Positions 4,532 to 25,783 of a stretch of DNA of 32,000 nucleotides are shown here, piece after piece; the stretch's first letter is position 1; each line of letters begins with the position of its first letter. The notes under the pieces are model-generated. The model was given only the letters and a program-made list of their open reading frames with translations. It made no database searches and had not been told where the DNA came from. Source of the stretch: Thermofilum adornatum (lineage in GTDB: Archaea; Thermoproteota; Thermoprotei; Thermofilales; Thermofilaceae); NCBI RefSeq assembly GCF_000446015.1, contig NC_022093.1, forward strand, positions 1 to 32,000, written 5' to 3'. The position numbers were made by a program, and so were the translations under genes.

Positions 4532-5383
4532 TCATAGGTATTGGGTAATCTTATTTTGGCGTGGTTTTTCTTCTTTGGGGAAGGCGGCTTCACACTCTAC
4601 AAAGTATTTTCTACACAAATCTCGGATCCTGTCTTCGACTGTGGTTATCCAAGTTGTGCTAGAGGACAACATGTTTGGAAACTTTTCGATGAGTGGCATC
4701 ATGGACTCCCTTATCCCTGGCTTTAGGTGGAGATAGTCATAGTAGACCTTGGAGCTTGTCTCTGCAGCTAGCCTAACTATTTCCTCGAGGTTTGCCCTTG
4801 TATCGTTTAAGCCACGGATAATTGGCCCAATAAATATCCATGTAGGTATTCCTGCTGTGCTGACCTCTCGTAGAGCCCTGGCGCGCTGATGTGGTGGCGG
4901 AGCGTTTGGCTCTATAAGTTTTGCGAGCTGGGGATCCAGCGTCGTTATGGTGAAGCCAACGTCTACATGGGGGATGTGGTTCTTCAATATGTCTATGTCC
5001 CTCGTGACCAATGGGGACTTTGTCTGCACGCTGACCTTGAAGCCGCTCTGCAGTAGGATTTGCAGGCCCCTCCTGGTGAGCCCCTCAGTGGCCTCGATTG
5101 GCTGGTAGGGGTCTGTAAGTGTTGACACGCCGACTGTTCCTCTGGGCTTCTTTTTTACTTCTTCACTGAGTACTTCGAGAATGTTCTCCTTTATGTAGAC
5201 TATTTTGCCCCAGTTCAGAGACACTTCATCGTACCTGGTGTATGCCCTAGCATAACAGTATATACAGCCATGAAGGCAACCCACGTATGGGTTATATGCA
5301 TAGTCGAGGTCGTAGAGTCCTGACCTGGAAAGGGCTGTCTTAACCTTTATCTTCTTATAGGTAACCTTGTCCACGCTGTCCAC
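4532..5383 (-). CDS. radical SAM protein, SplB/'DNA repair photolyase'-like (COG1533-type)
   Basis: 'NPYVGCLHGCIYCYARAY' carries the CxxxCxxC radical SAM cluster in the context typical of spore-photoproduct-lyase-like proteins. The C-terminus is 'QNKITQYL'. The gene starts 4 nt after the nre stop. Confidence 0.85.
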   Translation of the reverse strand: MDSVDKVTYKKIKVKTALSRSGLYDLDYAYNPYVGCLHGCIYCYARAYTRYDEVSLNWGKIVYIKENILEVLSEEVKKKPRGTVGVSTLTDPYQPIEATEGLTRRGLQILLQSGFKVSVQTKSPLVTRDIDILKNHIPHVDVGFTITTLDPQLAKLIEPNAPPPHQRARALREVSTAGIPTWIFIGPIIRGLNDTRANLEEIVRLAAETSSKVYYDYLHLKPGIRESMMPLIEKFPNMLSSSTTWITTVEDRIRDLCRKYFVECEAAFPKEEKPRQNKITQYL

Positions 5384-5387
5384 TTTT

Positions 5388-6626
5388 TCACCTCCCCTGT
5401 AAGGATCTCGTCAAGTAACTGAGTAGTGTCTCCTGCCTCGTGAGGTCCCTGATAAGCCTGGATTTTTCAAGCCAAACGTGAAGAGGTAGCCTGGTTGCTC
5501 TTCCAAGCCTCTCGAGAACCTCGCTTAACGAGTCGAATCTTTCGGGCGTTGTCCTGTAGAGCTGTCGAACATTCTCCCTTACAAACCAAACCCCTATGGG
5601 CGAGAAGAAGCCCTCATATATCTCCCTTATGAGTATAGCTGTCCCCTGCCTCTTTTCCCTAAGCATGTACTCGGCTGTTGCAAGCCTCGCAGCGTAGTAG
5701 CAACCTCCTAGACTGGCATACGTGGTTCTGCCCCTGTAGCCCTCATGGTCCCCTTCAACCTCTATTATGCTGGAGGGATTCCACATTGTGTGGGGGAACC
5801 AGGCCTCTATCCACTCGTAGCTCCATTCACGGGGCACAATTATCGCGATGAAGTTGTTGTCCTCGTGTCTCCACTGGAAAAACAAATAGCTCGAAAAGGT
5901 ATCATACTCCTTTATCTTCTCGATAAGCCTCTGAGAAATAGTCGAGTCGACGGCCGTTATAGACCACCTAGTTGGGACAAGCCTCCTCTGGAAGCCATAC
6001 CCAAGCGAGCCAGTGGAAAGCATTCTCTGGATCTGGCTAACAGGGACGCCCGACTCGTAGAGATACATGATTGCATCTGACGCCTTTATGTCGAGAGAGT
6101 AATACATCTTCTCGACTGGCCTGGGAAGCTTTGGCTCGCCGCTAACCCGTATCCTCTCCACGGGGCTTGCTGGGCCGAGGGGTGGAGAGAAAAGGTCCAA
6201 CAATGCTTTTAGGCTTGGCTTCCTGGAGAGATTCAGCTCTACCTCTACTGGTTCCCTAGAGATAGATGCAAGTCTAACCTCTTCTGGGACGTCTGCCCGT
6301 CGCACATCTACGCTCGTCTCTCCCCGTATCAATGAAAGCCTCATCCTAAGTATCTCTGAGAGAGGCTTCTCGAGCCATTTCTCCTGGGCCTCATAGAAAG
6401 ATGGGTCTCCGCCCGTAGCTGGGACACCGATGCTAAATCTTACCTTTGGATAGCCCTGCCTCCCAACAAACACTGTTGGCGGGGTCGGACCCTCAAGCTC
6501 GGTTGTTTCTGGAAGCCTGACGTCATTTAGCGCTTTCCAGTAGCTCATTAGGGGGCAGAAAGCCTTCCCGCACAGGTTTTTCGCCCCCCTACATTTGAGG
6601 CACAGAGCCGCGGCCCTCGAGGACAT
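5388..6626 (-). CDS. Nre family protein (archaeal DUF650/DUF651, putative DNA repair factor)
   Basis: N-terminal 'LCLKCRGAKNLCGKAFCPL' followed by 'VFVGRQGYPKV' matches the Nre N-terminal domain signature as I recall it. 'QETLLSYL' lies 7 residues from the C-terminus. Confidence 0.75.
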   Translation of the reverse strand: MSSRAAALCLKCRGAKNLCGKAFCPLMSYWKALNDVRLPETTELEGPTPPTVFVGRQGYPKVRFSIGVPATGGDPSFYEAQEKWLEKPLSEILRMRLSLIRGETSVDVRRADVPEEVRLASISREPVEVELNLSRKPSLKALLDLFSPPLGPASPVERIRVSGEPKLPRPVEKMYYSLDIKASDAIMYLYESGVPVSQIQRMLSTGSLGYGFQRRLVPTRWSITAVDSTISQRLIEKIKEYDTFSSYLFFQWRHEDNNFIAIIVPREWSYEWIEAWFPHTMWNPSSIIEVEGDHEGYRGRTTYASLGGCYYAARLATAEYMLREKRQGTAILIREIYEGFFSPIGVWFVRENVRQLYRTTPERFDSLSEVLERLGRATRLPLHVWLEKSRLIRDLTRQETLLSYLTRSLQGR

Positions 6627-7880: not shown

Positions 7881-8114
7881 TTAAGTGAACGCGAGCTCCT
7901 TATATAGAGACTCCTTAAGCTTATGGGTATCAGTAAAGTCGTCCACGTCTACTTCTATCGAGTCGAATAGCTCAGTTAGCTTAATAGTCTCGATGGGAAT
8001 AAGCCTAATCTCGTTGCCGGTAGCTTCCACGAAAAACACTCTTGAATTAAATTTCTCTCTGATGTCTGCCGGAACCACTATTCGACCATGCTTGTCCATT
8101 TTCACGATTTCCAT
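7881..8114 (-). CDS. AbrB/SpoVT-type antitoxin-like DNA-binding protein (no adjacent toxin)
   Basis: 'MDKHGRIVVPADIREKF' is the swapped-hairpin AbrB/MazE motif. No PIN or other toxin ORF lies downstream. Confidence 0.75.
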   Translation of the reverse strand: MEIVKMDKHGRIVVPADIREKFNSRVFFVEATGNEIRLIPIETIKLTELFDSIEVDVDDFTDTHKLKESLYKELAFT

Positions 8115-8323: not shown

Positions 8324-8788
8324 TTAGAATTGCTGGCAGATCTCTTCCCAAAAAGCTACACCAAGTTTCCTCAGCTCGTTCTCGTATGGTGCCATCTCTG
8401 TTTCTCTCTTCAAGAATAGAGGAGTTGCCTGTCTATGCATGCCAACAGCGATGACATAAATGTCAGAGAGAGCCATCTTAAACTTTTTCCTAAGCTCTCC
8501 AGCCAACACGGCTACTTCTCTGCCTATTGTTTCTAGCTCCACGCCCGGCAAAGCGAGCAACCACCTAACTAGCTCTAGAGCTTCCCTATTTGCGTCCTGA
8601 ACACCAGCCTCACTATACATTCTGGAAGCCACATATATGACCTCGCTTATAGTGACAGGAGACACGTATGCCCTTACCGCGCCTGCCCGCAAGAAATCAA
8701 AAAGCTTGTCTACTTGGAATGGCGAAGCCTCATCGACATACTCAGCAATCACACTAGTATCCAGAACGAAGACCCTCCTCGAGTTCAA
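8324..8788 (-). CDS. vapC: PIN-domain ribonuclease (VapC toxin)
   Basis: 'VFVLDTSVI', 'SEVIYV' and 'LSDIYVIA' supply PIN acidic residues. The listed ORF reaches 8845, but that would overlap vapB by 92 nt. A TTG at 8788 (MNSRRVFVLDTS) is a more plausible start; the exact start is uncertain. Confidence 0.8.
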   Translation of the reverse strand: MNSRRVFVLDTSVIAEYVDEASPFQVDKLFDFLRAGAVRAYVSPVTISEVIYVASRMYSEAGVQDANREALELVRWLLALPGVELETIGREVAVLAGELRKKFKMALSDIYVIAVGMHRQATPLFLKRETEMAPYENELRKLGVAFWEEICQQF

Positions 8789-8996
8789 GTTCCTCCCTCT
8801 TAGCTTCCCTGACAATTTCCTGCGCCTTACCGCCAAGCTTGACACGTAGAGGCCTCAAAGGCTTAATAACCATCGTGTCATCGATTAGCTCGAGCGTAAG
8901 CAGATCCCCTTCTTTAATGCCTAAAACCTCCCTCACCTCTACTGGTATAACAATAACCCCCTTCTTACTAACACGTATAATCCTACCACTCATCAT
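8754..8996 (-). CDS. vapB: AbrB/SpoVT-type antitoxin (VapB)
   Basis: 'RVSKKGVIVIPVEVREVLGIKEGDLLTLE' AbrB-fold motif, directly upstream of and overlapping the PIN gene. Confidence 0.8.
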   Translation of the reverse strand: MMSGRIIRVSKKGVIVIPVEVREVLGIKEGDLLTLELIDDTMVIKPLRPLRVKLGGKAQEIVREAKREELELEEGLRSGY

Positions 8997-9155: not shown

Positions 9156-11138
9156 TTAATGTGAAGCAGGTATATTGACGTTTACAAGCGAGGAGATCAC
9201 TGTCTCGTAGGCCCTTACAAGTAGCTTTTCATAGGCGTCGTAGTCTGGGAGAATAGTCCCAGTGCCCGGCACCCTTACGCGGAGGTGGGGGCTCGACTTT
9301 GGATGTTTTGCTAACACAAAACATACCTTTGACCCCTTCCCGGACACGCCTGCCTGCTGGGCTGCAACAACGTGCATGGCCTTGACCTTGTACTTTTCCC
9401 TTCTAAGAGTCTTCTCTATCAAGAGCTCCTCCACCGGGACCAGCCCGCTACGTAGCCTCTCGACCTCCCTCTTCAGAAGCTCCTCGGCCGCTGACAAGGC
9501 CCCGTCTACGCCGGACTTCTCGAGCGTGCTGAAGACTGTCTCCACGAGCCTTGCCTGGAAGCTCCTGACGAATGGCGGGTAGTCGCTCCTAGCCGCCTCG
9601 ACGCCCTTAAACACGTATTCGCCCTCAGCCGTGACGCCGAAGTACCTCTTTACGGGTGACGCACGCGTGGTCTTCGCCTCTGGGAAAGCTATAAACCTGA
9701 ACAGCTTGTCGACCTTTATCGGCATACCGTACTTCTCGGCTATCTCTCCTGCAAGCTCCTCGTAGTCGCTCCGCGAGGCGCCGTCCCTATAGACAAAGAC
9801 GCTGTCCGTGTCGCCGTAGATGACCGTGTAGCCCTTCTCCCTCAGGAGCCCGTAGACCCCCAGCATGACTCTCCTGGCGAGCCTGTTTATCCACTCGAAC
9901 GTCAACGGGTTCCCGAGCCTGTTATAATTGTTACCACTGTACCCATAGCTAGAGACCAGTATCATCTTGAGCTCCTTCTGCCTCTGGTCTGCAAACCTCT
10001 TTGCGTCTCCAGAGAGCTCCCGGGCCATATGCTTAAACCTGAGCCTACGCTCAAGCAACGGCTCAACAACGTCCACGAGTATCCCCCTAGGCTCCCTGGC
10101 GACCCCGCCGAGCGAGACAGTCTCATAGCTGATATTGTACCTAACAATCAAGTTGGGAAACATAGACTCAAAGTCTAGCTCCGCGACGTTCCCATATATC
10201 CCCGTTACCGGCTGGTATATGAGCCCTCCCCTGTCGCCCCTGTGGAGCTCAAGCATTGTCCTCACGTGGACGTTCCTATGCCTAGCCCTGGGCACAGCGT
10301 AGCCCCTCCTAAGCAACAGGTAGACCTGCCTAGCGTCAATCAGCCTGCCATAGCTTGTCATACCCGCCAGGGTCGGAGACAGCCCCGTAGCCCTACACCT
10401 CTCCTCGAGGCCAGCGAGCCCTATGCCGTCCAGCAGACCCCTCTCGACGAATATCCTCCCCTCGAGGACGCCGTCTCCCCTCCCAAGCCTAAACCAGCCG
10501 TGGCGCCTCCTAACCCCAATAGCTAGCTTGCGAAGCTCCTTCACAGGCATATTCACAGCTACAACGTCGGGGTCAAGCTCCTTGAGCACGGCGTCGAGGC
10601 CTTCAAGGATCCTAGACTCAGACCCCTCAAAGACTTTTTCGCCCCCGTTACTCCTAATGACAGCCTTAGAGAGAAAGCCCCCGCGCACGTGTAGGTCGAG
10701 ACTCACCGTCACGAGTGGGAGCGGCTCGACCCTGTCCTCGCCCTCCACGAAGAGCCAGCCGCTACGCCTATACGACCTGAGAGCCACGATTCCCACTTCA
10801 GCGAATAGCTTCTGGACGACGTTCACGTCTGAGTCGTAGCTAGTAAAACCGGCGCCCTCTACGACCTTCAGAGCCTTTTGCAGGAGCCTGCGGGACCCGT
10901 GGGAGACCCTTAGAAATGCCCCAGTCTTCCCGCCTACAAGCCTCCTCTCAACCTCCTCGACACTGAAGCCCTGATCCCACAGGGAGGCGAGGAAGCCAAG
11001 AGCGCTACTCTCTACCAGGAAGTAGTCCTCGAAGCCCCTGCGGAGAGCCTCTACGCCGCCGTCAAGCCCCCTGAGCCACAGCCTGGCCTCTCCACGCGAG
11101 ACAGAGGCGTCAACCACTACTGATTCGCTCGACCTCAT
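9156..11138 (-). CDS. family B DNA polymerase, short form with degenerate exonuclease motifs (PolB2/Dpo2-like)
   Basis: Polymerase motifs: A 'LDFESMFPNLI', B 'KMILVSSYGYSG', C 'VIYGDTDSVFV', plus 'VKRYFG'. At the Exo I position the sequence reads 'VSLDLHV' instead of FDIE-type, and no clear Exo II/III motif is seen. The 660-aa length is shorter than replicative PolB enzymes. Confidence 0.85.
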   Translation of the reverse strand: MRSSESVVVDASVSRGEARLWLRGLDGGVEALRRGFEDYFLVESSALGFLASLWDQGFSVEEVERRLVGGKTGAFLRVSHGSRRLLQKALKVVEGAGFTSYDSDVNVVQKLFAEVGIVALRSYRRSGWLFVEGEDRVEPLPLVTVSLDLHVRGGFLSKAVIRSNGGEKVFEGSESRILEGLDAVLKELDPDVVAVNMPVKELRKLAIGVRRRHGWFRLGRGDGVLEGRIFVERGLLDGIGLAGLEERCRATGLSPTLAGMTSYGRLIDARQVYLLLRRGYAVPRARHRNVHVRTMLELHRGDRGGLIYQPVTGIYGNVAELDFESMFPNLIVRYNISYETVSLGGVAREPRGILVDVVEPLLERRLRFKHMARELSGDAKRFADQRQKELKMILVSSYGYSGNNYNRLGNPLTFEWINRLARRVMLGVYGLLREKGYTVIYGDTDSVFVYRDGASRSDYEELAGEIAEKYGMPIKVDKLFRFIAFPEAKTTRASPVKRYFGVTAEGEYVFKGVEAARSDYPPFVRSFQARLVETVFSTLEKSGVDGALSAAEELLKREVERLRSGLVPVEELLIEKTLRREKYKVKAMHVVAAQQAGVSGKGSKVCFVLAKHPKSSPHLRVRVPGTGTILPDYDAYEKLLVRAYETVISSLVNVNIPASH

Positions 11139-11400
11139 CCTCTAGGTCCCTCAGCCTGCGCTCTAGCTCCCTGAGCCTCCATTCGAGGTCAAGCACAGAA
11201 ACGAGGAGGAGCGAGCCGAGGAGGTACGGGTTAGGATAGTTTGTCACGGCGCCCAGCTCCTCGCCCCAGGCCTTCTTGACGTAGATGTATGCCTCCCTCC
11301 TCTCCCTCCTCAAGAGCTCGACAAACTCGGCCTCGAGCTCGTTGAGCAACTGCAGGTACTTCTCCCTGACGCTCGGGGTAGCCCTGCCCACTAGAACCAC
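11110..11400 (-). CDS. hypothetical coiled-coil protein
   Basis: GTG start overlaps the upstream stop (GTGGTTCTAG), and the 3' end overlaps the polymerase start by 29 nt. Heptad-like E/R/L-rich segments ('LEWRLRELERRLRDLEDEVERI'). No recognised domain. Confidence 0.5.
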   Translation of the reverse strand: MVLVGRATPSVREKYLQLLNELEAEFVELLRRERREAYIYVKKAWGEELGAVTNYPNPYLLGSLLLVSVLDLEWRLRELERRLRDLEDEVERISSG

Positions 11401-12086
11401 CCCTCCACGTCCCTCAGTCCCCAGCCAGTCCTCTCAGCGTAGACAACCATGGGGGTAGCCAGAGGGCCCTTCTCGACAGTTATCCTAGTATACCTCTTTC
11501 CAACGTCCTCGAGCCTAGCTATAACGCTGGAAACATGCCTAGCATACACGGGGACCTCTGGAAGAGGCCTCCTAGAAAACCTAGACCTCCCCGCAAATAG
11601 CACGACTACCGCGCCCCTCTCCAGCAGCCTCTGGAGCCTCCCCAGAAACATCACGAGCCTGTCGTAGCTCTTCGGGCTAAACAGCTCGGATAAATGGGTA
11701 ACAGCTATGAGCCCCACGCCCCTCTTCAGTGCCTCTTCCACAATCAAGTCAACAGAGCCCACCTGTCCAACGCCGTAGACATTGGCTACGTGTATCCTCG
11801 AGAGCCCCTCCTCCGGATCCACGCCCCGCCACATCAGGGCCTCCGACAAAGCGTACGTGTCTATAGACCTCCCCTCATGGTAGTCCCTCATGTTGACGAC
11901 GAGCGGCGGCAAGCCCCCGGAGAGGGCTGAGGCAAGAAGGGTGTAGAGCATCTTTCCCCTAGAATCCTCGTCACCATAAAACGTGGCCACAGAGCCGGGC
12001 ACAAGCCCGCCCACAAGCCTGTCTAGTCCCGAGAGGCCCGTGGACAGCCTGGGAAGCTCTAGGAGGCTCCTCGCATTCATCAACAT
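11391..12086 (-). CDS. RecA/RadA-paralog (KaiC/aRadC-like) protein with degenerate Walker motifs
   Basis: 'STGLSGLDRLVGGLVPGSVATFYG' matches the RadA/KaiC N-terminal core. The P-loop position reads 'GDEDSRGKM' (one extra residue, T/S replaced by M). The Walker B position reads 'GLIAVTHLS' (no Asp). The start is taken at Met30 (12086) because a TATA-like box sits about 35 nt upstream; the listed ORF starts at 12173. Confidence 0.7.
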   Translation of the reverse strand: MLMNARSLLELPRLSTGLSGLDRLVGGLVPGSVATFYGDEDSRGKMLYTLLASALSGGLPPLVVNMRDYHEGRSIDTYALSEALMWRGVDPEEGLSRIHVANVYGVGQVGSVDLIVEEALKRGVGLIAVTHLSELFSPKSYDRLVMFLGRLQRLLERGAVVVLFAGRSRFSRRPLPEVPVYARHVSSVIARLEDVGKRYTRITVEKGPLATPMVVYAERTGWGLRDVEGWF

Positions 12087-12114
12087 GGATACCACAGGCA
12101 GTTGTGCGAGAAAA

Positions 12115-12128
12115 CCCCTTATAAACAC
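12115..12128 (-). promoter_or_regulatory. TATA-like box for the RecA-like/PolB operon
   Basis: The minus strand reads 'GTGTTTATAAGGGG', centred about 35 nt upstream of the ATG at 12086. This spacing fits an archaeal TATA-to-TSS distance plus a short leader. Confidence 0.4.
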
Positions 12129-12283
12129 TGGAGACACTCCTGCATAGGGGGGATAACGCCGAAAGTAAAACATTTAAACACACGCCACGGCGCGTAGCCC
12201 AGCAAAAAGACGTTAAAAAAGAGATGCGGGTCATATATGAAAAGAGATAAAGCATTCTCACGTATCAGTGTCCAATTATTTCT

Positions 12284-12607
12284 TTGATTCACAGAATGAA
12301 TATAAGTGTTTGTGGGTGTTTGTTTGCCGTGTTTAGTGAGCTGGGTGTGGCAAGGAACAGGCTTAGGCTTGCTTGGATGCTTAGGGAGAGGGGTGTCTAT
12401 GTCAGGCTTCATGCCTACGAGTATCTGCTTGGCTACAGGGGCAGGATTCTTGGGGTCTTGTTGCTTGAGCCTTCGAGGGGCTCTGCTTCTCTCTTTCTGC
12501 GTGGGGAGGGAGAGGATGCTGAGAGGCTTGCCGAGATTGTTGGGGATGTTTTGGGTAGGCTGGACCCGGGTCTGAGGCTCAGTGTTGTGCGGGTGGGGTC
12601 GGGCTAG
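12284..12607 (+). CDS. hypothetical protein (uncertain)
   Basis: 107-aa ORF divergent from the polymerase operon. The C-terminal half looks protein-like ('GEDAERLAEIVGDVLGRLDPGLRLSVVRV'). The region is so G/T-rich that a second frame (12306-12575) is also open, so ORF length alone is weak evidence. Confidence 0.35.
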   Translation: MIHRMNISVCGCLFAVFSELGVARNRLRLAWMLRERGVYVRLHAYEYLLGYRGRILGVLLLEPSRGSASLFLRGEGEDAERLAEIVGDVLGRLDPGLRLSVVRVGSG

Positions 12608-13392
12608 GCTTGTAGCCTTAGTTGTATTGGGCCCGTTATCTCGTTGTTTTTTGCTGTATACTTGTGGGCTGTGAGGTTGTCTAGCACGGTGCAGTTGAGT
12701 AGGTTTGTGGGGGTGTAGTAGTCGATTAGGGTCGAGGAGGCGTAGATGTGGAGGTTTTGGGCTGTGCAGTGGTAGAGCTTGGCGTAGTCTTTTTTCTGGG
12801 AGGGGTACTTGGTCGACACGATTAGTGTCGTTTCTTGTGGTGCTAGGAGGGCTAGGGCTATGTTGGCCATTTTTGCCGTGGATTGTAGTTTCGCTAAGTG
12901 TGACTGGTCTATTTCATTTAGTGTCTTGCTTGCGAGCCAAAGGTTTGCAAGGTAGGTGTCGTTGAATTCTTGGAGTAGCCTTGGGTTGCCGAGTAGTTGG
13001 CTTATTTCTTGCATGAAAGGGTCTAGGGTGAATTCTCCGTTGTGTATCATGTATAGCTCGTAGCCCAGCCTAGTGGTAGCCATGACCGGGTGTGTAGAGT
13101 GAATGTTTAGGGGTGTGCCTGGGCTCTTTTTCCTCGCGTGGAACATGAGGATTTTGCGTCCAGGCTTTATTCCTCGCAGGACTTCCTCTTCCTCGTAGAT
13201 GGGCCTGATGCTCCTATAGCGGACTGTTTTTCCAACGTTTCCTTCGAGGCTTATTTCTAGGTATCCCCACCCGTCTCCGTGAGAATCATTGTCGTTGTAT
13301 GGGTCTCTACGAGCAGAGTCAACAAGCGCCCTTGTGAGGAGTTTTAGTGTTTCTCCTTGTATTTCTCCTACGAGGACAAGTATCCTGCACAC
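12604..13392 (-). CDS. class II (Ntn-type) glutamine amidotransferase-like protein
   Basis: The protein starts 'MCRILVLVG' (catalytic Cys2 after Met removal), followed by 'HGDGWGY' and 'HARKKSPG...HP' segments typical of YafJ/EgtC-like GATase-2 domains. Confidence 0.7.
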   Translation of the reverse strand: MCRILVLVGEIQGETLKLLTRALVDSARRDPYNDNDSHGDGWGYLEISLEGNVGKTVRYRSIRPIYEEEEVLRGIKPGRKILMFHARKKSPGTPLNIHSTHPVMATTRLGYELYMIHNGEFTLDPFMQEISQLLGNPRLLQEFNDTYLANLWLASKTLNEIDQSHLAKLQSTAKMANIALALLAPQETTLIVSTKYPSQKKDYAKLYHCTAQNLHIYASSTLIDYYTPTNLLNCTVLDNLTAHKYTAKNNEITGPIQLRLQA

Positions 13393-17359: not shown

Positions 17360-19208
17360 ATTCAAGGGCACCCTCGATTCTTTTAATGATTTCAGAAAAA
17401 ACTTCCCCGAAAGCCTTATAGATAATTCTCGAGAGGTCATACAAAAAGAACAATAGGAAAAATAGCAGGACGAGTGAGGTAATCAACTCCAACAGTTGTC
17501 CTACTTTGGGTATTGTCCTCAACAAGGATGGGACGTAGAGAAGGGCAATTAGGGTTACTCCAAGGTATAAGAGATCGAGCCCGATGTGTTCAGCGACGCT
17601 TTCCGTTATGCCGAGGACACTTGTCATCTTTACCGCTAACGCGTCTACTAGCACCCTTACCCCGTCCAGGACATAGTAGCCATAGTATACGATTGCTAGT
17701 AGCGTGATAGCTGATACAGCTGTGCTCACGTCGATGCTTAGCAACCCAGTTTGTAGCAACGTATATCCGCCGAAGTAAGAATTAACATAGGACAGCACAA
17801 TCAAGACTAAAATTAGCTTGAACCCCTTGCTTCCAGCTCTCTCAAGTTTCCGCGCGATCATTCCCCTTCTCTCAGCGATTTTTGGGAACTCTTCTGCTAA
17901 ACGCAGAGGCTTAGCGGTGCCGATACGAGTACCACTAGAAAGCATGATAACTATGCCTGAGGCAATCCAATATGCCAGTGCTAGGATTTGCTGGTTTATC
18001 ATCACGAGTAACATTGCTAAGAAGAGCTTTACAGCAGGATCAGCAAGGAAAGTTAACGCGGGAGGCCTTATTTCTTCATGCTCAAAAATAACCGAAAGTA
18101 TAGAACTAGTTGCTCCCAAAACTGCGGCAAGGTAAAAGACGTTTGCGTTTATTTCCCCTAGACTGGCAACTAGGAAGTACAGCATACTCATCTCAGCGAG
18201 TGCCTGGCCAATTAAAGCAACATTGCCATAGGCTGGGAAAAGACCATGAAAAGAGACAATGACGTCGATGAAGTCTGTAAGAAAGATTAGGACATAGACA
18301 TATACAGCTAGATACATATATGATGTCTTGAGGGCATCCAAGAATAGAGAAGGGACAAGAGAAAACATTACAAGTAAAAACAAAGACAAAAGTATTGCTC
18401 CAGATGCGTTGTTTCTCTTTAGCTTGCCGGCAAGGTAGCCTGTTAAAGGCCTAACGAGTATTTTCGTTGCCAGACTAGAAGTCTTTCTACCATAGTCACG
18501 TAGGTTTATTTGCTTGTAAATTTTCCTGGCATAGAGCAAGTCGCTAGGCGTATCGATGTCTTTCCACAGAAATCCCGTGACATCTACGTAATCAACTTCT
18601 CCATCCTTTGCGGCCTTGTCGAGGGCATCACCTATAGATGCGTTTATGCCTTTTTCATTGATCACCTCCTCAATGTATCGGCGCGCATTTTCTCGAATGA
18701 TAATCAAGCCGGTATCTATCCCATACCTCGACTCAATGTTTTTGCCAACCTCTACGACTCTTCCTCCCTGCAACTTCACCTTTAGGCCCTCTTTTACCTC
18801 TGAAAGTGAGGGTTTCCTGTCAAGACATATAGTAAAAGCCTTGTTAGAGGAGTGAGTAAGCAACTTTTTCAGCATCTCGAACTCGAAAATGTGGTCGGAC
18901 ATCGCTACAAGAAAAGGAGGATCAACGTTTTTTAACGCCGTGTAAACTGTGTAGAGATTTCCAAACTCTTCAGCATCAATGCTCAAAATTATTGCTTTGT
19001 TTCCAAGCTTCTCCTTAAAGGGAGCAATATTTTCTTTCCTTGTAACCAAGTATATTGGGCTCAGGTTTGCCCTTGTAAACCTCTTAAGAATAAAGTCGAG
19101 GATCGTCACTCCAGGCTCAAGCTCCATTAGAGATTTGGGCCTCTCAAGAGAGTAGGGCTGGAGCCTGCTTGCAATGCCACCTGCGACGATAACCACGGGA
19201 AAAGTCAT
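17346..19208 (-). CDS. nucleotidyltransferase (inositol/sugar-phosphate cytidylyltransferase-like) fused to a polytopic membrane domain
   Basis: 'VVIVAGGIASRLQPYSLERPKSL' NTP-transferase loop, 'VAMSDHIF' and 'LWKDIDTPSDL', followed by about 10 hydrophobic helices. Where the CDP-alcohol motif would sit, the sequence reads 'LTDFIDVIVSF'. Confidence 0.75.
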   Translation of the reverse strand: MTFPVVIVAGGIASRLQPYSLERPKSLMELEPGVTILDFILKRFTRANLSPIYLVTRKENIAPFKEKLGNKAIILSIDAEEFGNLYTVYTALKNVDPPFLVAMSDHIFEFEMLKKLLTHSSNKAFTICLDRKPSLSEVKEGLKVKLQGGRVVEVGKNIESRYGIDTGLIIIRENARRYIEEVINEKGINASIGDALDKAAKDGEVDYVDVTGFLWKDIDTPSDLLYARKIYKQINLRDYGRKTSSLATKILVRPLTGYLAGKLKRNNASGAILLSLFLLVMFSLVPSLFLDALKTSYMYLAVYVYVLIFLTDFIDVIVSFHGLFPAYGNVALIGQALAEMSMLYFLVASLGEINANVFYLAAVLGATSSILSVIFEHEEIRPPALTFLADPAVKLFLAMLLVMINQQILALAYWIASGIVIMLSSGTRIGTAKPLRLAEEFPKIAERRGMIARKLERAGSKGFKLILVLIVLSYVNSYFGGYTLLQTGLLSIDVSTAVSAITLLAIVYYGYYVLDGVRVLVDALAVKMTSVLGITESVAEHIGLDLLYLGVTLIALLYVPSLLRTIPKVGQLLELITSLVLLFFLLFFLYDLSRIIYKAFGEVFSEIIKRIEGALEYESR

Positions 19209-19281
19209 TTTTTCACAAACATGAAACAGGCAAAAAACGTTAAAATAGGTATCGTGGTGAAGGTGTTAAGCCGGCAAGTTG

Positions 19282-19291
19282 ATATTTAAAT
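19282..19291 (+). promoter_or_regulatory. TATA box of the PadR-like gene (leaderless transcript implied)
   Basis: 'ATATTTAAAT', centred about 30 nt upstream of the ATG at 19317. Confidence 0.45.
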
Positions 19292-19316
19292 GTAGGAACT
19301 TATTGAAGCACACGGT

Positions 19317-19652
19317 ATGATTGTAAGCAGGAGCGTTAAGCCACTTGAGAGACTTAAGAGGAAAACAGGCGTAGAGAATCTATGGCTGTACGTCTTGGCT
19401 GAACTATCAAGAGGTGAGGATTACCCGTATTCGCTTATCAAGAGGATAAGGGAAGACTTTGGGGTAACGGCTGGGAAAGTCATCTTCTACGTTGTGACGC
19501 AGAAGCTTGAGGAAGAGGGCTTGATAAGGAGCCACTACGTCGAGAGGAGAAAGTACTTCGCGATAACTGAACAGGGCAGAGAGGTGCTAAGACAGGGGAT
19601 TAGCTATTTGAAGGAGCTTTCCGAGAGACTCCACATTGTCTCTGGTATATGA
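19317..19652 (+). CDS. PadR-family winged-helix transcriptional regulator
   Basis: 'ENLWLYVLAELSRGEDYPYSLIKRIREDFG...VIFYVVTQKLEEEGLI' fits the PadR wHTH pattern. Confidence 0.8.
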   Translation: MIVSRSVKPLERLKRKTGVENLWLYVLAELSRGEDYPYSLIKRIREDFGVTAGKVIFYVVTQKLEEEGLIRSHYVERRKYFAITEQGREVLRQGISYLKELSERLHIVSGI

Positions 19653-19749
19653 TTTTGCCTTTAGCAAATATCTTCCCGCCATATTGCTTTGGACTTCGCT
19701 AGAAAAATTCTTGAGCCTGTAAGCCTAGTTAACACCTTAGGTGAACTAA

Positions 19750-20124
19750 TTGATCCTTGTAATTCGTGGAGTTGACAATAAAAAGCTTCGGGAATTTAAG
19801 GCGGAGGCTAAAAGGCGTGGTTTAAGTCTTTCACAGGCACTCGAGGAGGCTATAGAGCTGTGGCTAAAGAAGGTAGAAGCAGACGAGAATAACGCTGCCT
19901 ACGAGCGGGAGAAAAACAGGCTCAAAGAATATTACGGAAAATACGCTGTATTTGCCTACGGGAAGCTCTTAGGGGTTTACGAGACGCTGGAAGATGTCAC
20001 AGAGACCCTGAAGAAACTTTCGCAAAGACCTAGACATTCAATAGTTGTAAGGATAGGCATAGATGATGCAGCGAGGGCGGAAATGGAATGGTGGGGAGGA
20101 TCTTTATCCAAATCAAAACTTTAA
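19750..20124 (+). CDS. ribbon-helix-helix (antitoxin-like) protein with a DUF5678-like C-terminal domain
   Basis: TTG start. 'ILVIRGVDNKKLREFKAEAKRRGLSLSQALEEAIELWL' has the RHH beta-strand/helix/helix layout. 'YYGKYAVFAYGKLLGVYETLEDV' resembles DUF5678. Domain names are from memory. Confidence 0.55.
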   Translation: MILVIRGVDNKKLREFKAEAKRRGLSLSQALEEAIELWLKKVEADENNAAYEREKNRLKEYYGKYAVFAYGKLLGVYETLEDVTETLKKLSQRPRHSIVVRIGIDDAARAEMEWWGGSLSKSKL

Positions 20125-20237
20125 GTCCTCCCATTGGTTCTTTCGGGAAGAATCTGTATCGGAGCTAGACCCACCCGTACATGTTGAAAAACCTTTCTGT
20201 AAAATAGCGATCAACTGAGGGACCACGGCTCGTAGAT

Positions 20238-20891
20238 TTATTGGGACATGGCTCTATGCAGTTTTTGTACGTAGAGCTCTCGTTCAAGTGTTTCGGCTTC
20301 TCGGGGCAACGGGTGGACCCCGCCTATAAGCATAGAGTATACTGCCACCTTTGCCGCCCGCTCCACGTAGCCCAAAACGGCTAGAGCCTCTTCGAGGCTT
20401 GAGCCACACGCGACTACGCCGTGGTTGGCAAGTATGACTGCCTTCTTGTCTCCGAGCGCCTCCACAGCGTTCCTAGCCAACTCCTCTGTACCCGACGGCG
20501 CGTAGCTTGCCACCCTTATCGTCCCACCAACATAGAAGGTCAGCTCCTCGAGGACGGGCTCTATGTCTACACGCTTCGCCGCTATTATCCCGGCATATAT
20601 TGGGTGAGCGTGGACAACGGCTTTTACGTCCCTCCTAGCCCTATAGATAGCAACGTGGGTCTTGAACTCTACAGACGGCTTCCCGTTACCCTCCAGCACT
20701 TTTCCGTCTCCAGTAACGAGGAGAACGTCTTCCGGCTTCATCCTCGCCTTCCAGACACCGCTAGGAGAAAGAAGGAAAAGGTCTTCGCCCACCCTTACGC
20801 TGATGTTCCCGCTGTAGGCCCAGTTCATCCCATGCTCTTCGAGGAAAACAAACGCCTCGACAATCTCCCTCTTGAGATCCTCGTAAGCCAT
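20238..20891 (-). CDS. class II aldolase/adducin-family protein (L-fuculose-phosphate aldolase-like)
   Basis: 'GNISVR', 'KPSVEFKTHVAIY' and 'VVHAHPIYAG' match the class II aldolase metal-site pattern. Confidence 0.85.
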   Translation of the reverse strand: MAYEDLKREIVEAFVFLEEHGMNWAYSGNISVRVGEDLFLLSPSGVWKARMKPEDVLLVTGDGKVLEGNGKPSVEFKTHVAIYRARRDVKAVVHAHPIYAGIIAAKRVDIEPVLEELTFYVGGTIRVASYAPSGTEELARNAVEALGDKKAVILANHGVVACGSSLEEALAVLGYVERAAKVAVYSMLIGGVHPLPREAETLERELYVQKLHRAMSQ

Positions 20892-21358
20892 ATTAGAAGT
20901 AAAGATGTTATCCTATATAGGTTTACCGTTGATCCGCTGAGCAGTACTCCTAAGAGCAATCCAGATTCTCATAGGTAAGTCCAAGAAGAAGATATAATAT
21001 GCTGTGCTCAAATTTATAAGTAGCTATGCGTGAAAAACCCTCGGGATAGACAAGAGTGAAGCGCGCGCTCGTGCTTGTCACTGATTGAAGATATTTAAAA
21101 ATTGCGAAGAAAGCGGAACTTTCCTTTTTACAGGGCTAGCGGTTTAGAGTTTTGGATCTAGCTAGTAGAAAGAAGGACATGCAGGCATGGCTGGAAGGCT
21201 AATTATTTATGAGTACTTAAAAATTATGTTGGTGCTTGAAGGTTGGCCAAGACAGTTGCTAACAATTAGCCCCTAATGAGACCATGTATTTTCAACTAAA
21301 TAATTTTAGCCATAACCAGCCCTAAAAATTCAGATAGGATGAAAGTTAGTCCACATAT

Positions 21359-22219
21359 CTAGCGAGACACGTTTTCCCGGCTTTCCTTTACTCGGCCCTT
21401 GTCCCCCGCTAAACTAGAAACATTTATCACACCGTAGCCAGCGGTCCTGTTACCGCCGACATTGGTGATTTCTCCGAGCCTCAGGAGCCCGGCTATCAGC
21501 TTCTTGGCGCTTGTAGAGGCGTCCTTCTTGAACCTCAGCCTGACCCAGCCCGTGAACCCGTTGGGGGCCGGCTTGGAGGCCTCCATCCTGGGCGTCCTGA
21601 TTTCTAGCCCGCTTATGTAGACCTTCTCAGCTAGCTCGCTGGGCTTGGGAAAGCCCTGGCCCGTCAGGTCGTGGGCAACAGCTACTAGGCTTGCAAAGAG
21701 GTGCTCGGGGTCCGGGTAGAGGACTTTGTAGCTCTGGTCGCCCCTAAGGGGGTTGAAGTACGTCGGCGTGAGAAAACGCACGTCCAGAGACTCCGGCGCG
21801 TCCTCGCCACTAATCACGCTCGATGGGTCGATAATCCTAATAGAGAGGCCGACAAGCCCAAACTCGACCCCGTTCACCTCTAGCCCCAGCGGACTAGTCG
21901 CGAGAATAGACACAAGCCGCCTAGAAGCCTCCTCGTCAAAAACCGCAACCTCCAGGCTACACCTAGCCCCCCTCTCAAAAACAACGCCCCCAAAAGAGGA
22001 CCCAGACTCTACAACACTGTAGCCAGACAAGAAACGCAGAGGCTTAAGAGAAAAAACAGACCTCCCACCCCTCCCCGAATGCAACAACTCAGACAGCCCA
22101 GAGTCAAGCCGTCTAACCATCCCCAGGAAAGCCCCACGGCTCTCTGCCCCAGCAAACACTGGAAGAGAGCCCCCACCCCCAGCAGAAAACTCGAAAACAA
22201 AATACACGATCGAAACCAT
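21359..22219 (-). CDS. cas6: CRISPR-associated endoribonuclease Cas6
   Basis: 'FLTPTYF' and 'PDPEHLFASLV', plus the C-terminal glycine-rich loop 'GEITNVGGNRTAGYGV'. The start is set at Met22 (22219), with the TATA-like 'GTTTAAAGTTTTTA' about 33 nt upstream. The gene lies directly downstream of the array on the same strand. Confidence 0.85.
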   Translation of the reverse strand: MVSIVYFVFEFSAGGGGSLPVFAGAESRGAFLGMVRRLDSGLSELLHSGRGGRSVFSLKPLRFLSGYSVVESGSSFGGVVFERGARCSLEVAVFDEEASRRLVSILATSPLGLEVNGVEFGLVGLSIRIIDPSSVISGEDAPESLDVRFLTPTYFNPLRGDQSYKVLYPDPEHLFASLVAVAHDLTGQGFPKPSELAEKVYISGLEIRTPRMEASKPAPNGFTGWVRLRFKKDASTSAKKLIAGLLRLGEITNVGGNRTAGYGVINVSSLAGDKGRVKESRENVSR

Positions 22220-22300
22220 ATAAAGCAATACACACTCCCACAATAAAAACTTTAAACAAAACTCAATCGACAAAGCTAGCATAATCTAAGACCAAGCCAC

Positions 22301-22456
22301 CTTTCAATTCATTCTTTTCTGATACATGCAAACATAGGAATAGAGGGCTGGAACGAATTATTCGTCTTTCAATTCATTCTTTTCTGATACTTCGACGATA
22401 TGCTTGACGCCGCATTCAGAGCATTCTTTACCTTTCAATTCATTCTTTTCTGATAC
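22301..22456 (-). CRISPR. mini CRISPR array, 3 identical 25-nt repeats and 2 spacers
   Basis: Repeats at 22301-22325, 22366-22390 and 22432-22456 read CTTTCAATTCATTCTTTTCTGATAC on the plus strand, which is GTATCAGAAAAGAATGAATTGAAAG on the minus strand. Spacers are 40 and 41 nt. The ATTGAAAG 3' end sets the transcription direction to the minus strand. Confidence 0.92.
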
Positions 22457-22715
22457 TGTTTCTTTGGGGTTTATTTTGTTTGGGTGTTATTTATTTGTTT
22501 GTGTGTTGTGTGAAAGTGTTTTTATGTCAAAGTTTTCCATGGAATATATTAGCTTTGTTTTAGTTTTCCAATTGTGAGTTATAAATGATATGGATCGGGA
22601 AGAGAGGCCAGGGAAGAATGTATTTTCAGAAATGGCTTCTTCCCGTAGGCTATTAACTTTTCCCGTGGAAATCGTTTCTACAGAGATTTCTAGGGGAAAC
22701 ATTTCCTCCCACCCC
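22457..22715 (-). promoter_or_regulatory. CRISPR leader A, with TATA-like box near the first repeat
   Basis: A/T-rich, non-coding and abutting the leader-proximal repeat. The minus strand reads AAATAAATAA (22487-22496), about 35 nt from the repeat. The whole segment recurs as an inverted copy at 23164-23421. Confidence 0.7.
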
Positions 22716-22869
22716 GTATCACGACAGAAAAACCTCTGTTATTCACTTTCCATTTATTTCTTATTTTTATCTTAGGAGATGATGACTGTCTGGTTAGAGC
22801 GGAGGACAAGGTATACATTTGGGGTTATGGGGCACAGCTATTTGTTGATACTGGTTCAGGGCGGTTTTT

Positions 22870-23148
22870 TCACCATTTGGCTTTGAAGGGTGTGTATGGG
22901 GCTTGGTCCCTAATTGCCCTTGCAAACATCCCGGCCTGCGTCAAGACGAGCTACTGTATTGGCGGTTTCGCCGTCTTCATGTTTTCATTTAGGAGCCTCC
23001 ACACATGCTTCACAGATTCTGACTTCTTTTCACCGTCTTCTGAGAGGAGGTTTGCCAGGCTTGAGGGATTTGTCCTGGCAAGCTTTATCAGGGGCCTGTC
23101 GACGGCTATGGGTCTGAATTCCTCCATGAGGTCTAGTACTAGGCTCAT
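22870..23148 (-). pseudogene. cas1: cas1 relic (C-terminal third only, interrupted by an in-frame TAG)
   Basis: '[17 protein letters not shown]' matches the conserved Cas1 helix/active-site segment. Reading through the TAG at 22951-22953 continues in frame as 'LVLTQAGMFARAIRDQAPYTPFKAKW*', a Cas1-like C-terminus. The N-terminal two thirds or so are absent. Confidence 0.7.
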
Positions 23149-23163
23149 CCTGCCTGGCCTACG

Positions 23164-23421
23164 GGCGTGGAGGAAAGAGTTCCCCTAGAAATCTCTGTAG
23201 AAATGTTTTCTACGGGAAGCCTTAACGTTTTATGGGAAGTAGACTTTTTGTAAAATAAGTTCTTCCCTGGCCTCTCTTCCCGATCCATATCATTTACCAT
23301 GCACAATGAGAAAACTAATGAAAAATTAATACTTCCAATGGGAAACACTTACACAAAAACACTTTCACACAACAGAGAAACAAATAAATAACACCAATAC
23401 AAAATAAACCACTGGGAAACA
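23164..23421 (+). promoter_or_regulatory. CRISPR leader B (inverted copy of leader A)
   Basis: By eye, roughly 75-85% identical to the reverse complement of 22457-22715. This includes the AAATAAATAA box (about 23383-23392) and the GAAACA junction with the repeat. Confidence 0.7.
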
Positions 23422-23446
23422 GTATCAGAAACGAATGAATTGAAAG
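23422..23446 (+). CRISPR. solitary CRISPR repeat following leader B
   Basis: GTATCAGAAACGAATGAATTGAAAG differs from the array repeat at one position (A to C at repeat nt 11). No second repeat is found 60-70 nt downstream. Confidence 0.75.
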
Positions 23447-23681
23447 GGACGGAGAAGCAACTGGTGCGTGGGGTGCTGTTCAGGTGTCTACATGGTGATA
23501 TAAGCGGGCTTAGCTTATATGAAGCACCGGCACATCAGTATGTGTCAATGGAGGAATGATGTATCAGTGCGTTTTCGAGAAAAAATGCCAAAGTAATGGG
23601 ATTGCCTTTGCGTTGAATAGTAGAGAAGTAGAGACTGCTGGTTGTATAGGAAAACAAGCATCTTACTGTGGGGCTTTTGAT

Positions 23682-24077
23682 CTATTTATTGCAGGGTCCA
23701 GCGCGTGCCAAGAGAGCATCGGCTATTAGTCCTAGGCCGAAGCCAAGTATTAGGCCTGCCAACAAGTTGTTGAAAAGGATTCCGAGGCCAAACCCAACGA
23801 TTATAAAGCTGGCCCACAAATTTTCTCTCATACGTGGCGACTTGTTATCCTTCTCGCCGCTTATAGTAAGCACAAGTGCGGGCCCTTCGAGCTTCTCGAC
23901 AACATAGACTAGGAGACCTATGCCTAGGCCCACAAGGATAAAGCCAAGAAGCATTAGCAACTCTGCTTGGCTATATGTGCCGAGTAGCCCTAGACCAAGG
24001 AACAAAAGGACAAAGCCGCCAATTATTGCCGCCGCGTCCCATATAGGGATTTTACGCTTCTCCCCAGTGCTCTGCAC
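23682..24077 (-). CDS. small integral membrane protein (about 4 TM), unknown function
   Basis: Four G/L/I-rich hydrophobic helices separated by short charged loops. No recognised motif. Confidence 0.55.
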   Translation of the reverse strand: MQSTGEKRKIPIWDAAAIIGGFVLLFLGLGLLGTYSQAELLMLLGFILVGLGIGLLVYVVEKLEGPALVLTISGEKDNKSPRMRENLWASFIIVGFGLGILFNNLLAGLILGFGLGLIADALLARAGPCNK

Positions 24078-24158
24078 AATTTTGATTTTCTATGCAGATA
24101 ATATAAATTTTTTCTAAAATGCTTTCTCTTTTGAAAAAATATAGAGCGATGGTGAGTG

Positions 24159-25151
24159 TTAAAAGAGCTTCCAGAGTTCCTCGGCTATGGGTAGCCCTAT
24201 TTCTATTTTTTCTCCGGTCTTTTTTACGAGTAGGCTGTGCCCGTTTTTCTTGAATTCGCCTATGATTGTTGCTTTTACTCCCTCCTTTTGTAGCCTTTCT
24301 ATGAGTATTGGGGCTGATTCTGGCTGGACTGCGATTAGGAGTGTGCCCGAGCTTATGAGCCCCAGTGCGTCTAGGCCGAGGGCTCTGCATATTTGTGCTG
24401 TTTCTCTTCTTAGTGGTATCTTTTCCTCGTATAGGACCACGCTGAGCCTAGAGGCGTATGCTATTTCTAGGGCCGCGGCGAGGATGCCTCCCTCGGTGGC
24501 GTCGTGCATTGCGTGGACCCCGTGGACCTGGGCCGCTGTTAGGGCTTCTTTTACGACGCTTATCTCGTGTATGAAGTTTTTGGCGTTCTCGAGGATTGAC
24601 TTGTCTATTTTGCCTAGCAGCTTGTCGTGGAAGTCTGTGGCTATGATTGATGTGCCTTCTAGTGCCGCGTCTTTTGTCGCTACGAGTAGGTCTCCGTCCC
24701 GTCCCCCGCTAGTCGTGAAGAACTTTTCCTTTTCGCCGACCCCGAAGGCCGTTGTAATGATTATTGGCCTGTCGAGTCCCGGGGTTATCTCGGTGTGTCC
24801 CCCTATAACGGTTGCGTCTATCTCGTCAGCGGCGCTCCTTATCTGGCTGGCCAGCTTTTTTAGTTGTTCCCTGGAAAAGGTTTGGGGCAACAGTAGGGTT
24901 GTGACTAGCCAGCTTGGCTTGACTCCCCTCGTGGCTATGTCGTTTGCGACGACGTGGACGGATAGCCAGCCCGCGAGCTCGGAGGCGCCCGTTATCGGGT
25001 CGCTGTGTGTTACGAGGACCTTGTCTCCTAGGTCTACTATTGCCGCGTCTTCTCCAATGGCTGGGCCTAGGAGGACGCTTGGGTCCCGGCGAGTGAGAAT
25101 TCCCAGCAGCTCTGATAGTTCTTCTTGGGAGAGTTTACCGTAAGGCTTCAT
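24159..25151 (-). CDS. AIR synthase-related (PurM/HypE/SelD-fold) ATP-dependent enzyme
   Basis: 'GEDAAIVDLGDKVLVTHSDPITG', 'GGHTEITPG' and 'MHDATEGGILAAALE' match PurM-superfamily motifs. Confidence 0.8.
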   Translation of the reverse strand: MKPYGKLSQEELSELLGILTRRDPSVLLGPAIGEDAAIVDLGDKVLVTHSDPITGASELAGWLSVHVVANDIATRGVKPSWLVTTLLLPQTFSREQLKKLASQIRSAADEIDATVIGGHTEITPGLDRPIIITTAFGVGEKEKFFTTSGGRDGDLLVATKDAALEGTSIIATDFHDKLLGKIDKSILENAKNFIHEISVVKEALTAAQVHGVHAMHDATEGGILAAALEIAYASRLSVVLYEEKIPLRRETAQICRALGLDALGLISSGTLLIAVQPESAPILIERLQKEGVKATIIGEFKKNGHSLLVKKTGEKIEIGLPIAEELWKLF

Positions 25152-25176
25152 CTAGGACGCCTATCCCTCTTTCGTG

Positions 25177-25668: not shown

Positions 25669-25783
25669 ATGTAATGCGTGTATATGGAGAATTTATAATT
25701 TTTTATTGCGTCTCCGGGACGGAATTATTGCTGGGAAAAATTGAACTAAATTACTTTTAAAATCTAAGATCTGCTTGCCTCAT

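Follow-up and report, generated by a model that had tools for sequence, protein, structure and literature searches.

A GC-rich three-gene block of Thermofilum adornatum as a very probable Thermofilaceae copy of the archaeal iRadA-PPB2-PolB2 operon

Introduction

What is the function of a short family B DNA polymerase with degenerate exonuclease motifs that is encoded together with a degenerate RecA-fold protein and a small coiled-coil protein? The question is raised by a block of three genes in Thermofilum adornatum (Thermofilaceae), located within the first 32,000 nucleotides of contig NC_022093.1 (assembly GCF_000446015.1); this whole stretch is referred to below as the window. An earlier note, made from the DNA letters and their open reading frames (ORFs), had proposed a damage-tolerance polymerase complex with a pseudo-ATPase and a coiled-coil protein as subunits, and had named no described complex with this composition. 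Our analysis points to a known system instead. We are highly confident that the locus is the Thermofilaceae copy of the archaeal iRadA-PPB2-PolB2 (Dpo2) operon, order type 1a, which according to the published model encodes a damage-tolerance polymerase complex. The gene identities, motifs, partner folds, synteny and fusions that lead to this assignment were all observed in the window or in related loci.

The idea of a damage-tolerance polymerase with these two kinds of subunits agrees both with the published model and with our family tests at the sequence level, but the novelty implied in the note is not supported. In the literature the association dates back to 2013-2014: the operons predicted by Makarova, Krupovic and Koonin 2014 combine PolB2 with a small, uncharacterised helical protein (arCOG07300) and inactivated RadA-family ATPases (PMC4104785). 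Timinskas et al. 2025 introduced the names PPB2 and iRadA, sorted the operons by gene order (1a being iRadA-PPB2-PolB2), reported fusions and proposed an in-silico 'mutasome' heteropentamer PolB2:iRadA:3xPPB2 (1:1:3) (PMC11791011). The system is already described, and what is new here is one further copy of it. No Thermofilum, Thermofilaceae or Infirmifilum is found among those supplementary-table entries of that study that we examined (PMC11791011).

Results

Gene layout and revised starts

The three genes are as follows.

9156-11138, minus strand: PolB2 gene, a maximal ORF of 660 aa
11110-11391, minus strand: PPB2 gene, 93 aa (maximal ORF 11110-11400, 96 aa)
11391-12086, minus strand: iRadA gene, 231 aa (maximal ORF 11391-12173, 260 aa)

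As maximal ORFs, the three co-oriented genes overlap by 29 nt (PolB2 and the 96-aa ORF) and by 10 nt (the 96-aa and the 260-aa ORFs), just as had been read in the earlier note, and two of the starts are revised here. The most likely start of PPB2 is the second GTG, the fourth codon of the ORF, at 11391, which gives a 93-aa protein beginning with MGRATPSVR. We moved the start there because the residue encoded by this GTG aligns with residue 1 of PPB2 homologues and because the orthologue in a related locus, L047, is annotated at 93 aa with the same 1-nt overlap; the GTG shares 1 nt with the TAG stop of the upstream gene (TAGTG). For iRadA, the most likely start is the ATG at 12086, since both the homologue P0003 and the gene call in L047 begin at this position. 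The corrected starts (231 aa and 93 aa) are of practical importance for protein expression, since the N-terminus of PPB2 is a functional arm in the published model.

The polymerase belongs with PolB2

In the 660-aa polymerase, Pfam identifies DNA_pol_B (PF00136, E=8.6e-30) and gives no match to the exonuclease domain PF03104, while the best NCBIfam model scores well under its cut-off. Solved PolB structures in the PDB align to it only from residue ~262-300 on. To read the motifs listed here, the protein was aligned by MAFFT with PolBs whose exonuclease motifs are intact.

10146-10175, minus strand: motif A, DFESMFPNLI, residues 322-331, intact
9942-9968, minus strand: motif B, KMILVSSYG, residues 391-399, intact
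9801-9818, minus strand: motif C, YGDTDS, residues 441-446, both Asp residues intact
10689-10703, minus strand: Exo I remnant SLDLH, residues 146-150, aligned with FDIE/IDIE of exonuclease-intact PolBs
10224-10304, minus strand: PolB2-specific loop VPRARHRNVHVRTMLELHRGDRGG ending with D302-R303-G-G, a motif common to PolB2 references

The alignment bears out what had been noted by eye, namely that motifs A, B and C are present and the exonuclease motifs degenerate. At Exo I the Asp is kept and the Glu is replaced by His (DxE to DLH), Exo II (NxxxFD) is lost and the segment of Exo III (YxxxD) is deleted. These degenerate Exo I, II and III motifs, together with the missing PF03104 match, speak against a replicative PolB1 or PolB3. 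A PolB2 that is 63% identical to the one in the window (P0008) still reads ELDVEV, with DxE intact, opposite LDLH. Because of this, the loss of the Exo I Glu would be recent within the lineage.

The loop offers a positive marker of the family. D[KR]GG (rarely DSGG, DNGG or DKAG) is common to nearly all published PolB2 references, whereas canonical PolBs lack the motif and have Y/x-x-G-G at the same position. The spacing from [VI]P to D[KR]GG is 19 residues in the window protein and in published PolB2s, including ADKGG of S. islandicus. A neighbour-joining tree, a distance method applied to 218 columns with partial-length references, places the polymerase accordingly. With 14 sequences and a bootstrap of 99, the window clade is the sister group of a clade with all nine published PolB2 references, and the two together (bootstrap 97) stand apart from most PolBs with the exonuclease Pfam domain, a comparison set that carried no PolB1 or PolB3 labels. 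The phylogenetic check suggested in the earlier note thus groups the enzyme with published PolB2s. In addition, a published PolB2 of the DxD type (Nitrososphaeraceae, YADTDA, order 1a) has its best hits in the window clade and matches other PolB2s or canonical PolBs less well.

Of the features published for the majority of PolB2s, only the substitution of the first Asp of motif C is missing, since YGDTDS is intact. A minority of PolB2s from TACK archaea keep DxD, and the published tables list both DTD and DVD members (PMC11791011). Judging from its motifs, the window polymerase is a member of this minority subclade, and the intact motif does not exclude it from the family.

The RecA-fold partner is an inactivated RadA

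The Pfam scan of the 260-aa protein gave no match, Rad51 included, NCBIfam yielded nothing useful for it, and a search of the PDB with the single sequence reached only E ~0.006, so a profile of 24 orthologues (A1) was used; a word-index homologue search had found 6 close relatives. The profile matches Sulfolobus solfataricus RadA (2bke) with E=9e-25 over core residues 80-317 only, and the protein is without the RadA N-terminal domain. A KaiC-type ATPase, which is the UniRef label of P0003, is ruled out, as the same profile matches KaiC with a far weaker E=3.7e-5. The AlphaFold2 (AF2) model has a predicted local distance difference test score (pLDDT) of 78 and a predicted template modelling score (pTM) of 0.81, and its top Foldseek matches are all Rad51, RadA or Dmc1 (E ~4e-12, template modelling score ~0.7). 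Three segments of the protein deserve attention.

11949-11975, minus strand: Walker A position, GDEDSRGKM, aligned with RadA GEFGSGKTQ; fails GxxxxGK[ST]
11688-11708, minus strand: Walker B strand, IAVTHLS, aligned with RadA lIVVDSvtshF; Thr in place of Asp
11394-11417, minus strand: tail LRDVEGWF at the C-terminus, resembling a PCNA-interacting peptide (PIP); fits xxx[LIVM]xx[FYW][FYW]

The GK within GDEDSRGKM is out of register, and even relatives with 60% identity do not keep it. None of the 24 orthologues has the Walker A GKT or the Walker B Asp, and the position of the Asp is occupied by T, Q, R, H, W or K. The disrupted P-loop and the absence of the Walker B Asp, both read from the single sequence before, are therefore upheld by the alignment with RadA and the orthologues. 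An active RadA/Rad51 recombinase is ruled out, as Walker A GKT, Walker B Asp and the N-terminal helix-hairpin-helix are all absent. Of the earlier description of this partner as RecA/KaiC-like, the RecA/RadA fold stands, but the profile E-values identify the protein specifically as an inactivated RadA (iRadA) and not as KaiC or an aRadC-type paralogue.

The C-terminal tail follows the pattern GL(R/L)(D/E)V(E/K)GWF in iRadA relatives down to 59% identity, with LEDVDGWF in locus L002, and has low pLDDT in the AF2 model. The C-terminus of PolB2 (..VNVNIPASH) has no PIP-like motif. In published sets, clamp-binding motifs are mostly on iRadA, and they occur at the C-terminus of iRadA or PolB2, rarely both, in a fraction of members (PMC11791011). 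The tail on iRadA and its absence from PolB2 agree with this 'one or the other' rule, and LRDVEGWF, as a candidate motif, probably tethers the complex to PCNA.

With both the exonuclease and the ATPase sites dead, the locus might be seen as a catalytically inert structural or regulatory module in replication control, which was the original 2014 hypothesis for PolB2 (PMC4104785). We find this hardly credible, as the three polymerase motifs are intact, including both Asp residues of motif C, and the more degenerate Sulfolobus Dpo2 is nevertheless a robust polymerase (PMC8764526).

The middle gene encodes PPB2

For the middle gene, the absence of a known domain holds as far as the local Pfam and NCBIfam copies are concerned, in which nothing useful was found for this protein. 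The family, however, had already been named in the literature (arCOG07300 / PPB2), and the orthologue in locus L050 (4751-5041) has a precomputed Pfam match to PF26485 (DUF8156). DUF8156 was not recovered when the L050 orthologue was scanned against our local Pfam copy; PPB2 may have a recent Pfam family. Searching the PDB with the single PPB2 sequence returned only GCN4-type coiled-coil noise. A word-index search found 1 close relative and an exhaustive phmmer search 18, two of which resemble coiled-coil noise. In the AF2 model, a free N-terminal arm is followed by three helices (8-22, 29-49 and 57-92).

11365-11391, minus strand: N-terminal arm of PPB2, MGRATPSVR, with conserved residues G2, R3 and R9

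In 12 PPB2 relatives, M1, G2, R3, W42 and P55 never vary and R9 hardly does, and 32/32 PPB2 orthologues in the related loci begin with [M/L/V/I]GR. The arm is the counterpart of the 'MGRT' arm of the published model, in which Arg3 and Arg9 are conserved. A profile of the locus orthologues matches published PPB2s of Bathyarchaeum (35 bits, full length), Thermoplasmatota (24 bits) and one euryarchaeon, and the iRadA profile also matches the iRadAs of the same sets.

The gene order is conserved

A genome scan identified 46 loci with relatives of the polymerase (from Thermofilaceae, Bathyarchaeia, a Freyarchaeota chromosome and others), and all ORFs of these loci were searched with iterated profiles built from the window proteins. 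With at least 1.1 kb of upstream DNA, 39 loci were usable. The linkage that the earlier note had wanted checked elsewhere is borne out: in 31 of the 39 (Thermofilaceae, Bathyarchaeia and Freyarchaeota), the polymerase gene is immediately preceded by iRadA and PPB2 in the same orientation. The two partners are separate in 13 of these loci and fused in the other 18, forming a protein of ~340 aa with PPB2 as the C-terminal part; where PPB2 begins in such a fusion, there is often a start codon behind a Shine-Dalgarno-like GGAGG/GGTG sequence. Such natural fusions support a contact between the two proteins.

The three-gene unit is intact in the closer relatives. Its surroundings change upstream in L047 and on both sides in L050, where the coding DNA of the cassette is 67-70% identical to that of the window. 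Locus L001 (JAEMPJ010000021.1, 98% identical) is labelled as a metagenome-assembled genome of Thermogladius sp., whereas all other close relatives are Thermofilum or Thermofilaceae; the label may be a binning or labelling error. For the polymerases of L003 (5887-7941, Infirmifilum sp., a PolB2 relative with 45% identity), L023 and L029, no iRadA or PPB2 was detected within ~5 kb on either side. They may be orphans or have partners elsewhere.

Composition of the block

That the block is rich in GC and Arg, as first noticed by eye, is borne out by measurement. Its GC content is 0.57-0.61 in 500-nt steps (~0.58-0.60 for the three genes), Arg makes up 10-13% of the three products, and the GC content at third codon positions (GC3) is 0.71-0.81 compared to 0.43-0.64 in all 30 other window genes measured. 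Could the block be a part of a recently acquired mobile element, with the polymerase serving the element, as in casposons, plasmids or viruses? The GC3 difference, the adjoining toxin-antitoxin-like genes and the upstream flanks that differ among L047, L050 and the window all speak for it. On the other hand, no terminal or flanking repeats bound the block, ARAGORN found no tRNA, and Pfam scans of the neighbours revealed no integrase or Cas1. The window, too, has the PFOR genes that adjoin PolB2 in L047, here at a distance of ~6.8 kb, and the polymerase groups with chromosomal PolB2s. The cassette deviates from its flanks in L047 and L050 as well, with a GC3 of 0.69-0.73 and in the direction opposite to that in the window; the bias therefore travels with the genes. 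Taken together, an origin in such an element seems very unlikely. Recent horizontal transfer is a conceivable but doubtful source of the GC3 excess, given the PFOR adjacency shared with L047 and the cassette's own GC3 in all backgrounds.

Upstream region

Two elements precede the iRadA gene.

12119-12125, minus strand: TATA-like box TTTATAA, ~36 nt upstream of the iRadA ATG, a putative promoter element
12147-12170, minus strand: conserved block TTTTACTTTCGGCGTTATCCCCCC, 24 nt, resembling a DNA damage-responsive element (DDRE), ~75 nt upstream of the iRadA start

The TATA-like box is kept in L047, and its counterpart in L050 is ATATAAA. A scan for sigma-70 promoters and intrinsic terminators is uninformative for an archaeon. 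The DDRE-like block is hardly changed ahead of the cassettes of L001, L047-49 and L050-51 (counterparts at 9923-9940 in L047 and 3990-4008 in L050), even though the coding DNA of L050 has diverged to 67-70% identity. In the L050 block, 12 contiguous positions agree with the consensus of the S. islandicus Orc1-2 element, AATAGTTTCRGWDTACTCWS, which happened in none of 200 shuffles (0/200). The window block has 2 mismatches to the consensus, and its match alone is not significant. Upstream of the cassette in L002, L004, L005, Freyarchaeota and Bathyarchaeia the block was not found, beyond the too-short ANTTTC.

Genes of bona fide radA near related cassettes

In eight loci, the gene that immediately precedes the iRadA(-PPB2)-PolB2 cassette is of the RadA type, and no such gene lies beside the window cassette.

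L004, 91-759: upstream radA
L008, 382-1389: upstream radA
L013, 3089-4045: upstream radA
L016, 3498-4463: upstream radA
L020, 3569-4525: upstream radA
L021, 3393-4397: upstream radA
L041, 809-1768: upstream radA
L042, 3659-4603: upstream radA

The three copies scanned with Pfam (L004, L013 and L020) match Rad51 with E ~1e-89, and the two full-length ones (L013 and L020) also match HHH_5. The enriched neighbours named in the 2025 paper do not include radA (PMC11791011).

It is conceivable that the same module has a different job here, and that the DxD-keeping subclade is an accurate repair or recombination polymerase, for example one extending D-loops or gaps handed over from RadA. Motif C is fully canonical, the window clade is sister to all HxxxD-type references in the neighbour-joining tree, and a bona fide radA directly precedes the cassette in the eight loci above. 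Furthermore, a sister group of apparently active polymerases has already been linked to arCOG07300 (PMC4104785), and the Sulfolobus Dpo2 itself copies undamaged DNA with high fidelity (PMC8764526). Nonetheless, the proofreading site is lost, as in translesion enzymes, the DDRE-like upstream block suggests damage induction, and in the window no radA adjoins the cassette. We regard a repair or recombination role as unlikely, but it deserves to be kept in mind.

Other genes of the window

Immediately downstream of PolB2, a gene for a MazE/AbrB-type antitoxin (8754-8996, minus strand) overlaps a PIN-domain gene (8324-8845, minus strand). A 77-aa ORF at 7881-8114 (minus strand) has no Pfam match and is AbrB-like by eye. 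At 4532-6626 (minus strand), 2.5 kb from the PolB2 stop, a gene for an archaeal Nre protein (Nre_N and Nre_C, E=3e-96) precedes a radical SAM gene; proteins of the Nre family bind PCNA and act in repair. On the other side of the cassette, a 262-aa ORF at 12604-13392 (minus strand) starts with MCRILVLVGE, gives no SRAP match and stays without any Pfam match at E-values as high as 1. Its product has an N-terminal Cys, which suggests an amidotransferase or hydrolase of the N-terminal nucleophile (Ntn) type.

The PFOR genes are found at 13087-15925 in L047, adjoining PolB2, and at 67-2317 in the window, 6.8 kb from PolB2. The segment 2332-9155 was therefore either inserted in the window or deleted in L047. 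A Cas6-domain gene is present at 21359-22282 (minus strand), and no CRISPR array was detected within 19000-27000.

Discussion

The polymerase motifs, the partner folds, the conserved order and the fusions all lead to the iRadA-PPB2-PolB2 operon. Several observations weigh against this assignment or against carrying the published model over to it, and they should be considered together. A 2026 review regards the PolB2 complex as a prediction still to be verified, even for Sulfolobus. The neighbours reported as enriched (orc1/cdc6, DUF72 and SRAP) are absent among the window genes scanned, and six related loci, Infirmifilum L003 among them, have no partner genes within ~5 kb, two of the six being partial polymerase matches only. 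The canonical YGDTDS is unlike HSIID of the characterised Sulfolobus enzyme, so kinetics and fidelity may differ. At position 4, PPB2 has Ala (MGRA) and not Thr (MGRT). The PIP-like tail of iRadA is without the canonical Gln, and its likeness to a PIP was judged by pattern. Finally, the PPB2 and iRadA profiles derived from the window miss the partners of S. islandicus and Methanothrix, which are too divergent; the link between S. islandicus and the window consequently runs via intermediate published sequences.

If the published model applies to this locus, PolB2 would be the catalytic subunit, with motifs A, B and C intact and the proofreading site dead. In the published sets, the PolB2 loop before D(K/R) is modelled to bind iRadA like the Rad51 oligomerisation motif, and the D(K/R) motif to contact the PPB2 'MGRT' arm with Arg3 and Arg9 (PMC11791011). 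By the same token, the loop ending with D302-R303-G-G would dock on the ATPase-dead iRadA core in the way RadA subunits join in a filament. A PPB2 trimer would form a coiled-coil pillar with its arm reaching the primer-template, and the iRadA tail would provide the tether to PCNA. By analogy with S. islandicus Dpo2, DNA damage would induce the complex, which would extend primer ends opposite lesions or mismatches (the translesion 'extender' step). The assembly and its stoichiometry, the binding to the clamp, the induction by damage and the extender activity are all inferred from the literature. The S. islandicus enzyme is an active, exonuclease-free extender of mismatched and lesion-opposed termini (PMC8764526), and its induction depends on Orc1-2 (PMC6061795).

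It is tempting to go one step further and to speculate that TTTTACTTTCGGCGTTATCCCCCC is the counterpart of the Sulfolobales Orc1-2 element and controls the PolB2 operon, and that the dead recombinase with its LRDVEGWF, rather than the polymerase, brings the complex to PCNA. We consider this combined proposal possible but somewhat doubtful.

The closest characterised system is the Dpo2 operon of Sulfolobus/Saccharolobus islandicus (Timinskas et al. 2025, PMC11791011; Feng et al. 2020 and 2022, PMC7390963 and PMC8764526). The two share the same three families, co-oriented and adjacent, a polymerase with no proofreading site and with the D(K/R)GG loop, a PPB2 with the MGR arm, and a RadA core without the N-terminal domain or the ATPase residues. 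They differ in gene order, which is iRadA-PPB2-PolB2 (1a) in the window and PPB2-PolB2-iRadA (3a) in S. islandicus. Motif C is YGDTDS in the window versus HSIID in S. islandicus, Sulfolobus-type PolB2s having HxI(V/I)D. The exonuclease domain of the 660-aa window PolB2 is less reduced than that of S. islandicus Dpo2, residue 9 of PPB2 is Arg in the window and Thr in S. islandicus, and the PIP-like iRadA tail of the window is a further difference. A further likeness is found in the DxD-retaining TACK operons of the published set, such as those of Nitrososphaeraceae (MPZ08283, YADTDA) and Culexarchaeota (MCS7385765, YADVDS), which share DxD and order 1a. Operons of this type have their best mutual similarity to the window clade, although the window comes from a different order of archaea.

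More distant parallels come from other domains of life and other polymerase families. In bacteria, ImuA-ImuB-DnaE2 combines a degenerate RecA-fold protein with an error-prone polymerase in a damage-inducible cassette; it differs in having a family C polymerase and an inactive family Y adaptor, and has no PPB2-like subunit. Eukaryotic Pol zeta (Rev3-Rev7(2)-Pol31-Pol32) is likewise a multisubunit extender of family B with an inactive exonuclease, but its accessory subunits are unrelated and none of them is of the RecA family. The architecture of PolB2 complexes has been likened to that of Escherichia coli Pol V (UmuD'2C-RecA), a translesion polymerase with a RecA-family subunit bound via an oligomerisation-like motif, a small oligomeric subunit whose N-terminal arm lies near the active site, and use of the clamp (PMC11791011). 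Pol V, however, belongs to family Y, its RecA is the active cellular recombinase, and UmuD' is unrelated to PPB2, which makes the likeness an analogy and not a homology of whole systems.

The locus itself adds little new beyond the known operon family. However, apart from the PolB2 system no multisubunit translesion polymerase of family B is known from prokaryotes, and the assembly of this system has so far been a prediction. Within this family, the Thermofilum locus offers a conserved candidate PCNA-binding tail on a dead RadA subunit. If TTTTACTTTCGGCGTTATCCCCCC does correspond to the Orc1-2 element, the damage regulon of the Orc1-2 type, which has been demonstrated in Sulfolobales alone, would extend to Thermofilaceae. 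As a clean example of the subclade with a canonical active site, the locus could also show what role the accessory subunits had before the catalytic site drifted.

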